A stretch of DNA of 64,000 nucleotides from NCBI GenBank assembly GCA_904502095.1, contig CAJGDG010000002.1:128-64127 (forward strand). The letters are read 5' to 3'. Both the position numbers and the translations under genes were made by a program. Source of the stretch: an uncultured Alphaproteobacteria bacterium. Its GTDB lineage: Bacteria; Pseudomonadota; Alphaproteobacteria; Rs-D84. Below, piece after piece: positions 48,266 to 63,851 of this stretch. The notes beneath the pieces are model-generated. The model had not been told where the DNA came from, ran no database searches, and saw only the letters and a program-made list of their open reading frames with translations. Position 1 is the first letter of the stretch. Each line of letters opens with the position of its first letter.

Positions 48266-48679
48266 ATGCAATTAAAGTTTTTATTTGTTGCTGTGTTAAT
48301 GGCAGTGGCGTCATTTGATGTTTCGGCGGCGACTATTGGTTCGGCTGGTGCGGGGAACGCTGGAAGCAATACGGTTTATGCAAATGGTTTGGTCGGTTCG
48401 GGTGGTATAAATGCGGACGACAGTGCAAAATTGCAGATGATTTCGACCTTGGAAAACGATATTACAATATTGGATGCTGAAATAAGAAAGTGTGAAAAGT
48501 CCAAAAAGGGTTGGATTGCGGCGACTGTTATTGGGTCGGCGGGTGTTGTGGCGACGGGCGTTGCCGCCGGTGTCCAGGGCGCAAAATTGTCCAAGAAAAA
48601 GGGCGAGCTGGAAGACATAAATGCTGACATTGCAAATAAACAAAAAGAATTGAATTCTATTAATGGCGGGGGAAATTAA
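48266..48679 (+). CDS. Secreted/membrane coiled-coil protein with a Cys-Lys-Ser-Lys motif followed by a glycine-zipper segment (137 aa)
   Basis: Signal peptide; GNAGS motif; ILDAEIRKCEKSKKGWIAATVIGSAGVVATGVAAGVQGAKL; AAGGGAAGGG SD. Confidence 0.7.
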   Translation: MQLKFLFVAVLMAVASFDVSAATIGSAGAGNAGSNTVYANGLVGSGGINADDSAKLQMISTLENDITILDAEIRKCEKSKKGWIAATVIGSAGVVATGVAAGVQGAKLSKKKGELEDINADIANKQKELNSINGGGN

Positions 48680-48680
48680 G

Positions 48681-50438
48681 ATGAAACGCGGTATTTTATT
48701 TTGTATGTGCACACTGTTTCCAATGGTTGCGGGTGCGGATTATTTGGACGATAAAATTGCGACATTGACCCAGCAAAAGTTGGATAAGATTGCAGAATTG
48801 GAAAAATGCCAAAAGTCGACCAAGGGATTAAAGATTGCGGGTATTACAACCCTGGGTGTCAGTACGATTGGTATTGCCGCCAATATTGGTGAAGCGGTTG
48901 CACTGAATAAAACCGAGGACAAGATAGAAACTGCACAAAAGACAAGTTCTGATTTGGATAGCCAAATCGCAGCAGCAAGAGAAGAAGCGAGAAAGAAAGC
49001 AGAGGAAGAGGCGAAAAAGAAAGCAGAGGAAGAGAAGGAAGAGAAGAAAGCGGAGGAAGAGGTTAAGAGTCCTGAAATAGAATCGGACACAAATATTCCA
49101 GATTGCCCAGCAACGGGTAGTTGTTCTATAAACGATTGTAAGTCAGATGCCGTTCTTAGGGGGTTGGGGGCTGCAAGTGCAGATTGTTATGACGGTGCGT
49201 GTATAGCGACCGAGTGTTCTGACCCCAGTGGAAATCATACGAAAAAACAATGTAAAAAACCAGACGGGACTATTTTCTCTTATTATTCAACGTGTATGGG
49301 CAAGGGTCAGAGTAAAAATACCGATAAGTGTGAGCTGACAGGGCATATTAATTCAAATCCTGGTGTTTGTGCTTGTGCTGAATATGCTTTTCTGATTCCG
49401 GGCTCTAACGAGTGTAAATGTCAAGGTGGAACAGACTGGAAAGATGACAAGAAAGAATGTGAATGGTTGAATATAACTGTGGAGGCTGAAGGTGTGTCGA
49501 GGCCTGATGGCCCAACCGCAGCAGAAGTTGCCGCTGGCTTGCCAAGGGGGCAAATGACGGTAGATACAACAGAATTGGGTATAAATCTTCCAGAAACAGA
49601 ATTGCAAAAATCTTTGAATGAAGTAAACGCGCAAAGCGACGCCCAAAAAGCCGATTTGCAAAGAAGATTGCAGGCGGGGCAATTGACCCAAGATCAATAT
49701 AATTCAGCAGTTGATTTGTTGGACGCGAATACCGCATCGCAACGAGCTGAAATGACCAAGAAAGCACAGAAAAAATTGCAGGAAGAACGACAGAAATCTT
49801 GGGAAAAGATAGCAAAAGAAGTGAATGAAATTGATGATTCAATAAAGAAAGCAGAAGCCAAGGCGGCAGAAGAAGCAAAGAAAAAACTGTGTGAGGATAC
49901 AAATGGAAGATGGCGTCCGGGCAGAAAAGATTGCGAATGCGACGATATCTATTCTTTTGTTGATGGCCAGGGTTGTGTTCTGGACCAGGCAAAGAAACAG
50001 GCACAGCTTGAAGAGCTGACGAAAAAACAGGAAAAGTTGACCGAGTCAAAGGTCGATAAAAAGACAGAAAGACAAACAGATAAATTGCTGAAAGATTTGC
50101 AGAAGCAAAAAGAAGAGGATGCTGAAAAAGCAAAGCAGGCTTTGTGTGAAAAGGCGGGACGCTGGAATCCTACTCTTAAACGCTGCAATTGTAATGATGA
50201 TTTGCACAAATGGGATGATGCGATGGGTTGTGTCGTAGACGAAGCAAAAATGCGTAAAGAAGCCGAAAGGCAAGCTGAAAAACAAAAAAAGGCAGATGAA
50301 AAAGCAAAAAAACAAGCTGAAGAAGATGCTTATGATAAAAGAGTGTCTGATGCGATGGCTGAATATGGTTTTAGTAAATCCAAAGCAAAGCAGTATATTG
50401 AAAACCAAGATAAAATAAATGCTTTGAATAGTCTTTAA
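48681..50438 (+). CDS. Large secreted coiled-coil / Cys-module protein, paralogous at its N-terminus to 48266 (585 aa)
   Basis: KIAELEKCQKSTKGLKIAGITTLGVSTIGIAANIGEAVAL; Glu/Lys-rich helices; a central Cys-rich region; two 4-Cys modules. The ATG lies 1 nt after the upstream stop. Confidence 0.7.
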   Translation: MKRGILFCMCTLFPMVAGADYLDDKIATLTQQKLDKIAELEKCQKSTKGLKIAGITTLGVSTIGIAANIGEAVALNKTEDKIETAQKTSSDLDSQIAAAREEARKKAEEEAKKKAEEEKEEKKAEEEVKSPEIESDTNIPDCPATGSCSINDCKSDAVLRGLGAASADCYDGACIATECSDPSGNHTKKQCKKPDGTIFSYYSTCMGKGQSKNTDKCELTGHINSNPGVCACAEYAFLIPGSNECKCQGGTDWKDDKKECEWLNITVEAEGVSRPDGPTAAEVAAGLPRGQMTVDTTELGINLPETELQKSLNEVNAQSDAQKADLQRRLQAGQLTQDQYNSAVDLLDANTASQRAEMTKKAQKKLQEERQKSWEKIAKEVNEIDDSIKKAEAKAAEEAKKKLCEDTNGRWRPGRKDCECDDIYSFVDGQGCVLDQAKKQAQLEELTKKQEKLTESKVDKKTERQTDKLLKDLQKQKEEDAEKAKQALCEKAGRWNPTLKRCNCNDDLHKWDDAMGCVVDEAKMRKEAERQAEKQKKADEKAKKQAEEDAYDKRVSDAMAEYGFSKSKAKQYIENQDKINALNSL

Positions 50439-50466
50439 AAAAACCGCCATTTGGCGGTTTTTTTAT
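50437..50466. terminator. Bidirectional rho-independent terminator
   Basis: AAAAAAACCGCCA-TT-TGGCGGTTTTTTT. Confidence 0.88.
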
Positions 50467-50876
50467 TTTGTTTTTTGTGCTGCTGCATTAATGATTTGCA
50501 TTCGTTTTTCAAGCTCGCGCTGAAAGTTTCGTTTTGATGCGTGGTTCAAGCGGTTAAGGAAATTTTCGTCGTCATTAAATACATAATAAGAACTTGGGTA
50601 TAACTGCACAACTGGTTCGTTTGTTTCTTTGTCCAGGTATTCAATAATTGTTGATGCAATTTTTTCGCCCATTTGGCTTGCTTTGTATGTGACAGCCATG
50701 TCGTATGCACATGGATTTGGAAATGGTTTAGATTTTATCCAGCCGGTGGCAGATGTTTGCTTTACACCGTTTTCGCATAATAATGGCAGCGGCGTTTCTT
50801 TGCATTCCGAGAATACATTGAAATTGCACATAACATTAAAGTTAATTAAATATGTGTTCTTCTTTTTTTTGCTCAT
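50463..50876 (-). CDS. Hypothetical protein (137 aa)
   Basis: ORF from MSKKKKNTYLINF with no motif recognised. Confidence 0.5.
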   Translation of the reverse strand: MSKKKKNTYLINFNVMCNFNVFSECKETPLPLLCENGVKQTSATGWIKSKPFPNPCAYDMAVTYKASQMGEKIASTIIEYLDKETNEPVVQLYPSSYYVFNDDENFLNRLNHASKRNFQRELEKRMQIINAAAQKTK

Positions 50877-50979
50877 TTTTATTATCTCTTTGTTCCTTTT
50901 ACAAACAATATTATAATACAAAAATAGCATTTGTCAAGCATTGGGTCGGTGTAAATGTGTTTTTTGTGTTTTGTGGCTT

Positions 50980-62932: not shown

Positions 62933-62936
62933 ATTT

Positions 62937-62961
62937 ATGGGGGCACGCACCCCATTTTTTC
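62937..62961 (+). terminator. Rho-independent terminator
   Basis: ATGGGG-GCACGCA-CCCCATTTTTT. Confidence 0.75.
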
Positions 62962-62988
62962 TTTTGACTTTATTTTTTTGTCATTTTG

Positions 62989-62997
62989 TGATATAAT
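62989..62997 (+). promoter_or_regulatory. Extended -10 element TGATATAAT
   Basis: TTTTGTGATATAAT lies 26 nt upstream of the ATG at 63024. Confidence 0.5.
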
Positions 62998-63023
62998 ACA
63001 GTCAGTATTTAAAGGAAGAGAGT

Positions 63024-63851
63024 ATGAGATTTTTTGTACCTTTGATTTTGGCTTTGGCTGTGATGGATGTGGCGTCTGCGGCAAATTCGGCTGGGCGCGG
63101 TCGTGTTTCTATGGCGGATCAGATGATGGCGGCACCACGTGCGACAGTGTCAAAAAATCAAATAAACGCTATGGCGGCGGCAAACCATAAAAGCAGTTTG
63201 GCTGTCACGCCCGAAGTAATGCAGCCCGCAGAAAAAATTGATATGCGTGAAGATGAAAAGAATGCGTGTATTGGTAATAATGTCGGGGTTGGAAACACTT
63301 TTGTTTGGGCGTCCAGATACAGTAATACGGATAATTATTCCATGATGCTGGAAGATACAGAAAGTCCAGAAAACAATACTTGTTTCGTTCGTGTTGAATT
63401 AAAATCGCGCGATCCAAAGATTGATGTTTCTGATTTTGAGGCTAAATATTATGAAATGGGGCAAAATATCAAATGCGCAGAGTGGGTTGAAGAAGAAGAT
63501 CTTCGGCAAAGAATTTTAGACGCTAAAAAGTCAAAGCGCGCGTGGGCGACTGTTGGTGGTGCGGTTGGTGGTGCGGCAGTTGGTGTCGGCGCAATGGAAT
63601 TATTTGGTAATAAAATAATTGGTGGCAAGGTCGAAGGACAAAAGGGGATGGATGAAAAACAGTTCATAATTTCTAATATCCACAAGCAAAAGGAACAAGA
63701 TTCTGCGAAATACAATGCTTTTGTTAAAGATATTAAAGACTTAAAAGAATCCTGTGACGAAAATAACCAAGATGCGCTTTCTAAATCCGTTTGCGATAAA
63801 TATAAATATCTGATGGATGAATTTGCAAAGACCGAGACGACAAAAAGTTAA
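63024..63851 (+). CDS. Secreted Cys-containing protein with a glycine-zipper segment; third member of the family seen at 48266 and 48681
   Basis: Signal peptide ending VASA; RILDAKKSKRAWATVGGAVGGAAVGVGAMELFG; flanking coiled-coil; AAGGAAGAGAG SD. Confidence 0.7.
   Translation: MRFFVPLILALAVMDVASAANSAGRGRVSMADQMMAAPRATVSKNQINAMAAANHKSSLAVTPEVMQPAEKIDMREDEKNACIGNNVGVGNTFVWASRYSNTDNYSMMLEDTESPENNTCFVRVELKSRDPKIDVSDFEAKYYEMGQNIKCAEWVEEEDLRQRILDAKKSKRAWATVGGAVGGAAVGVGAMELFGNKIIGGKVEGQKGMDEKQFIISNIHKQKEQDSAKYNAFVKDIKDLKESCDENNQDALSKSVCDKYKYLMDEFAKTETTKS

Follow-up and report, generated by a model that had tools for sequence, protein, structure and literature searches.

We describe here a pair of adjacent genes, called gene A (48266..48679, + strand) and gene B (48681..50438, + strand), in a 64,000-nucleotide stretch of DNA (the window) from an uncultured alphaproteobacterium of the order Rs-D84. 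The window covers positions 128-64127 of contig C2 in a host genome of 846 kb in 32 contigs that is 91% complete. Both genes encode proteins built on one module, in which a signal peptide precedes a heptad helix, a single invariant cysteine and a 22-residue uncharged segment of glycine, threonine and alanine. On balance, we lean toward the view that the two proteins form a disulfide-locked heteromeric membrane module that would carry a hypervariable, disulfide-rich domain.

Gene A encodes a 137-residue exported partner protein, in which a signal peptide (residues 1-21) is followed by a variable linker, a heptad helix from about residue 55, Cys76 (48491-48493, +), the uncharged segment W83-Q104 (48512-48577, +) and a short Lys-rich tail. 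The ATG of gene B lies 1 nucleotide past the stop codon of A, and its 585-residue partner protein has a signal peptide, a helix and Cys43 (48807-48809, +) upstream of the uncharged segment L50-E71 (48828-48893, +). A Lys/Glu-rich helix comes next, and the B tail (~49100-50435, +) contains 22 cysteines. The initial annotation of the window had placed these two proteins together with the product of a third gene, gene C (63024..63851, +), and had quoted one segment from each. All three segments are present, and each begins on a cysteine codon (48491 for Cys76 of A, 48807 for Cys43 of B and 63474 for Cys151 of C); likewise, Sec-type signal peptides were found on A, B and C, as had been stated.

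To compare the three proteins, profile alignments of 34 A proteins, 13 B modules and 32 C orthologues were aligned to each other with hhalign. The A and B profiles aligned over 111 columns with a probability of 97.5% (E-value 5e-12), and pairwise BLASTP of the two proteins gave an E-value of 0.002 with 14/33 identities. Judged by these alignments, A and B are paralogues that share a homologous module. Further, the similarity between A and B is not merely one of Gly/Ala composition, because the profiles are homologous and the uncharged segment is the best-conserved part of A.

The results with gene C were different. In its 275-residue product, the signal peptide is followed by an alpha+beta domain that contains 3 invariant cysteines, then by an invariant block and by a helical tail with 2 further invariant cysteines. 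In the 32 C orthologues, the block reads ILDAKK..R.W...GGA..GVG.MELFGN..IGG.V.GQ (63513-63641); it is dense and has no heptad pattern. The hhalign probability was 42% over 28 columns for A and C and 1% for B and C, BLASTP gave an E-value of 0.2 for A and C and no alignment for B and C, and, when the sequences were anchored on the tryptophan, the position in C opposite the cysteine of A and B was an invariant alanine. It is rather probable, therefore, that the three-way likeness, as far as it includes C, is only compositional, that the element in C arose independently and that the family consists of the A/B pair alone. The distribution of the genes also favours this explanation: C is core and syntenic, being found in 24/24 sampled genomes of the genus (with a mixed profile that includes C itself) and in the order rpsT-plsY-C-dprA in the two relatives read, whereas A and B are accessory. 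What can be said for a common origin is that the E-value of the A-C hhalign comparison is nominally low (2.7e-4) and that C, in the same lineage, has the same order of elements (ILD, Lys-rich stretch, Trp, Gly-rich segment and helix). C has 1,109 clusters of relatives but matched no Pfam family at E <=0.1 and belonged to no NCBIfam or Protein Data Bank (PDB) sequence family. Its AlphaFold2 model had a mean predicted local distance difference test score (pLDDT) of 68.5, with values <50 in the Gly segment (residues 174-206), and a Foldseek search of the PDB with this model returned nothing at E <4. On sequence grounds, C is probably a separate, genus-wide envelope protein family and at best a distant relative of A and B, the link to A being marginal and that to B absent. 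Overall, the proposal of a module shared by three proteins holds for A and B but is not shown for C. The proposal of a secreted family with a membrane-inserting or oligomerising Gly/Ala segment also stands for A and B, whereas the alignments do not place C, or a 657-residue exported Gln-rich, Cys-rich protein encoded at 310..2283 (+), in that family.

When the whole genome was searched with a strict pattern, the three window segments and a fourth on contig C15 were found, and a profile of the four segments then found a fifth protein directly after the fourth (E-value 2.7e-9). These two proteins make up a second A+B cassette of the same genome (C15:11455-12316), which had been overlooked in the initial annotation, and the intergenic spacing is 1 nucleotide in both cassettes. 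In a census of 151 genomes of the order Rs-D84, A was present in 29 genomes, every one of which also has B, and a further genome has B alone, which brings the total for B to 30. B was located directly downstream of A on the same strand for 54/55 A genes (hit-to-hit spacing of -9 to 132 nucleotides), and 8/62 B genes had no upstream A. The number of copies per genome ranged from 0 to 6 for A and reached 8 for B. Thus, the unit is not three or four dispersed loci, as had been proposed, but a fixed cassette of two genes, A followed by B, which is accessory and patchy across the order. In a different family of the order, one locus (L105, G028:C7:395500-399800) contains an array of A, B and B, and the third gene of this array has as its tail a TPR region similar to the ones in NlpI, PilW and BamD.

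The neighbours of the cassette vary between genomes, and between the two cassettes of this genome, and include ABC-F, rpmB, ybaB, rpoA and L21/L27 genes. In the window, the genes directly upstream encode, by Pfam match, a TcpQ-domain protein (45312-46307, +) and a lipoprotein secretin (46341-47969, +), the latter being the sole secretin of the genome. Because cassettes elsewhere adjoin unrelated genes, TcpQ and the secretin are not conserved partners, and the possibility that they form a type IVb pilus component with the cassette was rejected, as this linkage is absent from the other genomes examined and from the second cassette. Pilus and secretion genes are scattered in this genome, with a type II secretion system/type IV pilus-type ATPase at C11:10164-11375, far from the secretin, and a pilin-like gene at 56391-56855. 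A filamentous-phage coat protein or pilin-like subunit was also rejected as an explanation, given that the genes are multi-copy in varied chromosomal contexts and that the hydrophobic segment is internal, after a signal peptide and a coiled coil.

We measured the conservation of A on 132 diverse A sequences. Cys76 and G90 were conserved in 100% of the sequences, Q104 in 98%, T87 in 97%, L62 and G93 in 96%, W83 in 94%, T97 in 93% and A101 in 82%. The layout of B mirrors that of A (L40, C43, L/F50, G54, T57, G64 and N68), and L29, L40, C43, A53, G54, T57 and N68 were invariant in the 13-sequence B alignment. The strongest period in the conservation of A was 3.5 residues, a power equalled in 1/2,000 shuffles, and its phase was 97 degrees in the charged helix (residues 55-82) and 103 degrees in the uncharged segment (residues 83-104). 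Because the phases match, a single heptad continues without a break from the coiled coil to the uncharged segment, and Cys76 occupies a core position in it. The tail past the segment was poorly conserved and had little periodic signal (heptad amplitude of 0.12 vs 0.36-0.41). Within the heptad, the conserved residues occupy positions a, d, e and g, and plain hydrophobic residues fill the variable positions b, c and f; this is the pattern of a helix that would pack on its neighbours by a broad face and turn its other face toward lipid.

Next, the A and B sequences were compared in register, using the invariant cysteine as the reference point. Layer +11 is Thr in A (97%) and Gly in B (100%), layer +14 is Gly in A (100%) and Thr in B (91%), and layer +21 is Thr in A (93%) and Gly in B (91%); further along, +25 is Ala in A and Asn in B, and +28 is Gln in A and Glu or Leu in B. 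Near-invariant Thr/Gly swaps at homologous positions of co-encoded paralogues would be the expected product of in-register heteromeric packing. Further, mature A contained exactly one cysteine in 119/131 sequences, and 10/11 B proteins (the first set counted) had exactly one cysteine before the segment. Because A and B each have a single equivalent cysteine, an intermolecular A-B disulfide at this layer would be the natural inference.

Because both proteins have a signal peptide, their helix and cysteine are predicted to be outside the cytoplasm. The number of cysteines was even in 19/20 B tails (22, 0, 2, 17, 6, 4, 6, 4, 4, 16, 42, 58, 38, 54, 24, 34, 24, 22, 16 and 16; a partial sequence from genome G009 with 18 cysteines was left out). 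The chance of at least 19/20 even counts is ~2e-5 if the counts are independent, but they include related proteins, so that the true significance is weaker. Because of these even counts, the B tails look disulfide-bonded and extracytoplasmic. The long tails are ~5-7% cysteine, as estimated from counts and lengths, and one tail contains a poly-Thr linker. Across the genome, even counts were found in 40/61 signal-peptide-like proteins, a class assigned by a crude rule, vs 251/529 other proteins. The genome also encodes a membrane-anchored DsbA-like protein (C1:53892-54836, +) with a CGYC motif and N-terminal membrane helices. The 91%-complete genome yielded neither DsbB nor VKOR, which, in a lineage without a respiratory chain, raises the question of how the DsbA-like protein is re-oxidised.

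The additive Hessa sums of the A and B segments were +2.0 to +4.6, whereas known membrane helices encoded in this genome (PlsY, CdaA, PgsA and an AI-2E transporter) gave -1.5 to +3.1. Together, the signal peptide, the cysteine parity, the DsbA-like protein and the Hessa sums argue against the segment as a stop-transfer helix of the ordinary inner-membrane kind and for an extracytoplasmic location of both its flanks. The segment could be located in the outer membrane or in a foreign membrane, or it could form a re-entrant hairpin. A straight helix is favoured by the unbroken heptad and by the low-confidence AlphaFold2 helix, and a hairpin is favoured by the likeness to XaxA described below.

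Searches of NCBIfam revealed that A resembles part of XaxA (NF033928), the subunit A of the alpha-xenorhabdolysin type of binary alpha-pore-forming toxins in the ClyA superfamily. Residues 57-131 of the window A protein matched positions 181-256 of the 339-position profile (E-value 7.6e-5, 22.1 bits), the C15 copy matched with an E-value of 0.0048, and 34/34 A proteins matched at E <=0.01 over positions ~172-259, with a best E-value of 2e-8. NheC, another ClyA-superfamily toxin, was matched by 9/34 A proteins. Because 0/10 reversed A sequences matched NF033928 at E <=0.05, the signal does not come from composition alone, and a purely compositional origin was rejected. According to the published account (PMC6086661), the XaxA head is a coiled coil with a short hydrophobic tip. 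From their position and length, profile positions ~172-259 would correspond to this tip, and a coiled coil with a short hydrophobic tip was what the 34/34 forward, but not the reversed, A sequences had in common with the profile. The XaxA/YaxA system and the A/B system are alike in having a helix, a hydrophobic stretch of ~22 residues and a second helix, encoded beside the gene of a second subunit. They differ in that A is only 100-170 residues long and has a Sec signal peptide and the invariant cysteine, and in that B is a paralogue of A and is not XaxB-like; cytolysis is known for neither A nor B.

Several observations weigh against the reading that we prefer. First, the Kyte-Doolittle means of the segments are 1.3-1.9 (1.5-1.9 for most), which would allow an ordinary inner-membrane helix. 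Second, both flanks of the A segment are net positive (N-side +2.8 and C-side +1.95), and therefore the charge rule leaves the topology unsettled. Third, the AlphaFold2 model of the A monomer is a single helix (residues 50-134) with a pLDDT of ~50 and is uninformative. Fourth, the reading offers no mechanism by which the outer membrane would be entered or crossed by an alpha-helical segment and a folded disulfide-rich tail. The relationship to XaxA is limited as well: A scored 22-26 bits against an NF033928 cut-off of 125 bits, and only positions ~172-259 of 339 were matched, so that the five-helix tail and the neck of this ~340-410-residue protein are missing in A. The A profile found no XaxA/YaxA chain in the PDB at E <=10. 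The A family is narrow (210 clusters, with 163 representatives among 1.84 billion), and the 150 matches listed are all 59-247 residues long, with no long relatives or intermediates among them. Similarly, XaxB (NF033927) was matched by 0/13 B modules and by none of the full B proteins tested, though an adjacent partner is present. Because A has no toxin tail domain and scores far below the cut-off, A is not a member of the XaxA family; judged by its sequence pattern, the A module resembles the XaxA head without being a Xax toxin.

Some of these observations would fit an alternative in which A and B are type I inner-membrane proteins of the ordinary kind: after cleavage of the signal peptide, the helix and the cysteine would lie on the periplasmic side, the Gly-rich segment would act as a stop-transfer helix, and the B tail would be in the cytoplasm, its cysteines perhaps binding metal. 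We regard this alternative as unlikely. The hydropathy of most segments agrees with it, as do the Lys-rich stretch after the A segment (K112 at 77%), the continuous AlphaFold2 helix with its unbroken heptad phase and weak matches to FtsL, a family of bitopic coiled-coil proteins. However, a cytoplasmic tail does not fit the even cysteine counts, the high cysteine content of the long tails or the poly-Thr linker, nor the weak likeness (E-value 0.006) of the B-tail cysteine module to the 310..2283 protein, which has a signal peptide only. In addition, the Hessa sums exceed the values of almost every true membrane helix in this genome, positive charge is greater on the N-side than on the C-side flank, and no other part of the protein is as well conserved as the segment, which is unlike a plain anchor.

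We also considered whether A and B are a released, minimal two-component alpha-helical pore-forming toxin, that is, a cut-down relative of XaxAB/YaxAB in which A, folded as a hairpin, enters a foreign membrane and primes its partner, B contributes a variable target-binding domain, and the pair damages or taps other cells. This appears improbable, even though the XaxA match is direction-specific in all A proteins (and extends to NheC in nine), the matched stretch corresponds in length to one helix plus a 22-residue hydrophobic tip plus another helix, and the gene layout is binary, in an accessory cassette of varying copy number. The mid-segment position of the invariant G90 and G93, the extracytoplasmic look of both flanks and the reduced, probably partner-dependent metabolism of the lineage (PMC12306168) also agree with such a toxin. 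However, A is short compared with the 339-position model and has no tail bundle that would keep the tip soluble, no intermediates join A to real Xax proteins, and B is not XaxB-like. Further, the weak conservation past the A segment is unlike that of a packed hairpin arm, the heptad keeps its phase throughout the segment, and no route of export across the outer membrane was seen.

Two other groups of proteins share features with A and B. Pairs of the FtsB/FtsL type are likewise two small related proteins with a membrane helix continuous with a coiled coil and a packing face made up of polar or small residues; the NCBIfam FtsL matches were, however, far below the cut-off. A and B have the opposite orientation, with a signal peptide and with the coiled coil preceding the segment, and they are accessory and multi-copy, have huge variable tails and are not division genes. 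Glycine-zipper outer-membrane lipoproteins (SlyB/Pcp, Rick_17kDa_Anti PF05433 and Gly-zipper_Omp PF13488) are exported and have a Gly-rich membrane stretch that is thought to drive oligomerisation. A and B resemble them as exported envelope proteins with a Gly-rich uncharged stretch, but have no lipobox, possess a single 22-residue segment in place of a two-helix zipper, and show heptad (3.5-residue) rather than GxxxG (4-residue) spacing. A, B and C matched none of the glycine-zipper Pfam families PF13488, PF13441, PF13436 and PF05433 at E <=0.1. The B proteins, whose open frames range from 111 to 1,159 residues across the order, had no Pfam match (E <=0.1 for the window B and E <=0.01 for ten further B proteins), and the window A likewise matched no Pfam family at E <=0.1. 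The A/B family is unannotated in the public libraries searched (Pfam, NCBIfam and PDB sequences). Accordingly, the earlier statement that no known class can be assigned holds in that no adhesin, pilus or glycine-zipper Pfam family was matched, but a closest relative does exist in the XaxA-type hydrophobic head region. Elsewhere in the genome, a 312-residue signal-peptide protein (C14:24853-25791, -) has four Gly/Ala-rich uncharged stretches alternating with helices; it matched the mixed module profile weakly (E-value 0.005) and belongs to no NCBIfam family.

Two further features had been taken as marks of the family. The GNAGS motif shared by A and the 310..2283 protein is a chance resemblance: the two proteins gave no BLASTP alignment, the genome profile search misses the 310..2283 protein, and the motif sits in a part of A that is not conserved among its relatives. 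The weak cysteine-module likeness mentioned above is the only similarity between the 310..2283 protein and the B tail. As for the common promoter element, TGATAWAAT was indeed present 19-31 nucleotides upstream of the starts at 310, 48266 and 63024, as the extended -10 TGATATAAT at 48227..48235 (+) for the A/B cassette and TGATATAAT at 62989..62997 (+) for gene C. However, the window contains 15 copies of TGATAWAAT vs 3.5 expected (e.g. at 4876, 17764, 27819, 48227, 54911 and 62989). Because of this excess, and because it precedes many unrelated genes, TGATAWAAT is the general extended -10 of the genome and not a family mark, and its role as a shared regulatory element was rejected.

We compared strains using the cassette-covering contigs of four gut metagenomes. 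A T16 homopolymer (48178..48193, +) lies 34 nucleotides upstream of the -10 element of the cassette, and its length varies between strains: one copy has 8 T fewer, several contigs break here, and two metagenome contigs have a GT insertion at 48177. Variation in the length of this tract could tune or switch the cassette promoter. Directly upstream of the cassette, positions 48002-48103 had a contig depth of 100-170 compared with ~9 in the flanks, with many alternative junctions; this is a multi-copy repeat resembling a miniature inverted-repeat transposable element. Indels within A and B were multiples of three, with a 9-nucleotide indel in the variable linker of A and in-frame indels of 9, 24 and 33 nucleotides in the Lys/Glu-rich stretch of B (48980-49040). 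The sole substitution listed within the A segment (48538) was synonymous. Two runs returned by an RNA search consisted of fragmentary, low-depth contigs of related strains, so that this search yielded nothing on expression.

The relatives of the C protein are recorded as Candidatus Enterousia sp., uncultured Alphaproteobacteria or Rickettsiales; their sources are the guts of cattle, sheep, goat, yak, horse and chicken, together with Hadza-labelled human-gut bins. Genomes of Enterousia and the order Rs-D84 are ~0.8-1.0 Mb and lack several glycolytic enzymes, the tricarboxylic acid cycle and respiratory chains, and the reduced metabolism of the Enterousia lineage probably makes it partner-dependent (PMC12306168). 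The envelope is diderm, because AsmA and secretin genes are present in the window and LptD and SurA in relatives. The window also contains a CdaA-type diadenylate cyclase gene (DAC and CdaA_N domains, 59916-60677) directly after an AsmA-family gene.

In the model that we favour, A and B are paralogous partners from one operon, both exported by the Sec route, which would pair side by side and in register via the heptad helix and the 22-residue uncharged segment continuous with it. A disulfide between the single equivalent cysteines, one heptad above the segment, would lock the pair; the Gly/Thr/Ala/Gln face would pack helix on helix inside the membrane, and the plain hydrophobic face would be turned toward lipid. 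The complex would keep the variable disulfide-rich tail of B outside the cytoplasm, at the cell surface or in the envelope, and may act as a membrane-embedded holder or insertion device for this variable outer domain. Judged by sequence pattern, its closest counterpart is the tip with which XaxA-type binary pore toxins dip into the membrane, and the Lys-rich/Trp/Gly-rich element of C would be only superficially similar. A more specific version, which is speculative and which we think doubtful, is that A and B constitute an undescribed, Sec-exported envelope device related to XaxAB heads: a disulfide-locked, in-register heteromeric helix bundle whose Gly/Thr-lined segment spans the cell's own outer membrane or enters the membrane of a partner cell, and which displays or delivers hypervariable disulfide-rich domains for the partner-dependent Enterousia.

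The module is of structural interest for its coiled coil that would continue unbroken into a Gly/Thr-lined uncharged helix, its complementary Thr/Gly layers and its putative disulfide clamp. Members of the order Rs-D84, including Enterousia, are common in the guts of ruminants, birds and people, and Enterousia need to obtain what their reduced metabolism cannot supply, a question on which the A/B cassette may bear. With a near-invariant, putative membrane-insertion module joined to a fast-changing, apparently disulfide-rich outer domain, this accessory, multi-copy cassette is a candidate for making contact with other cells, in which it could function as a holder for an adhesin or as a pore former of minimal size.

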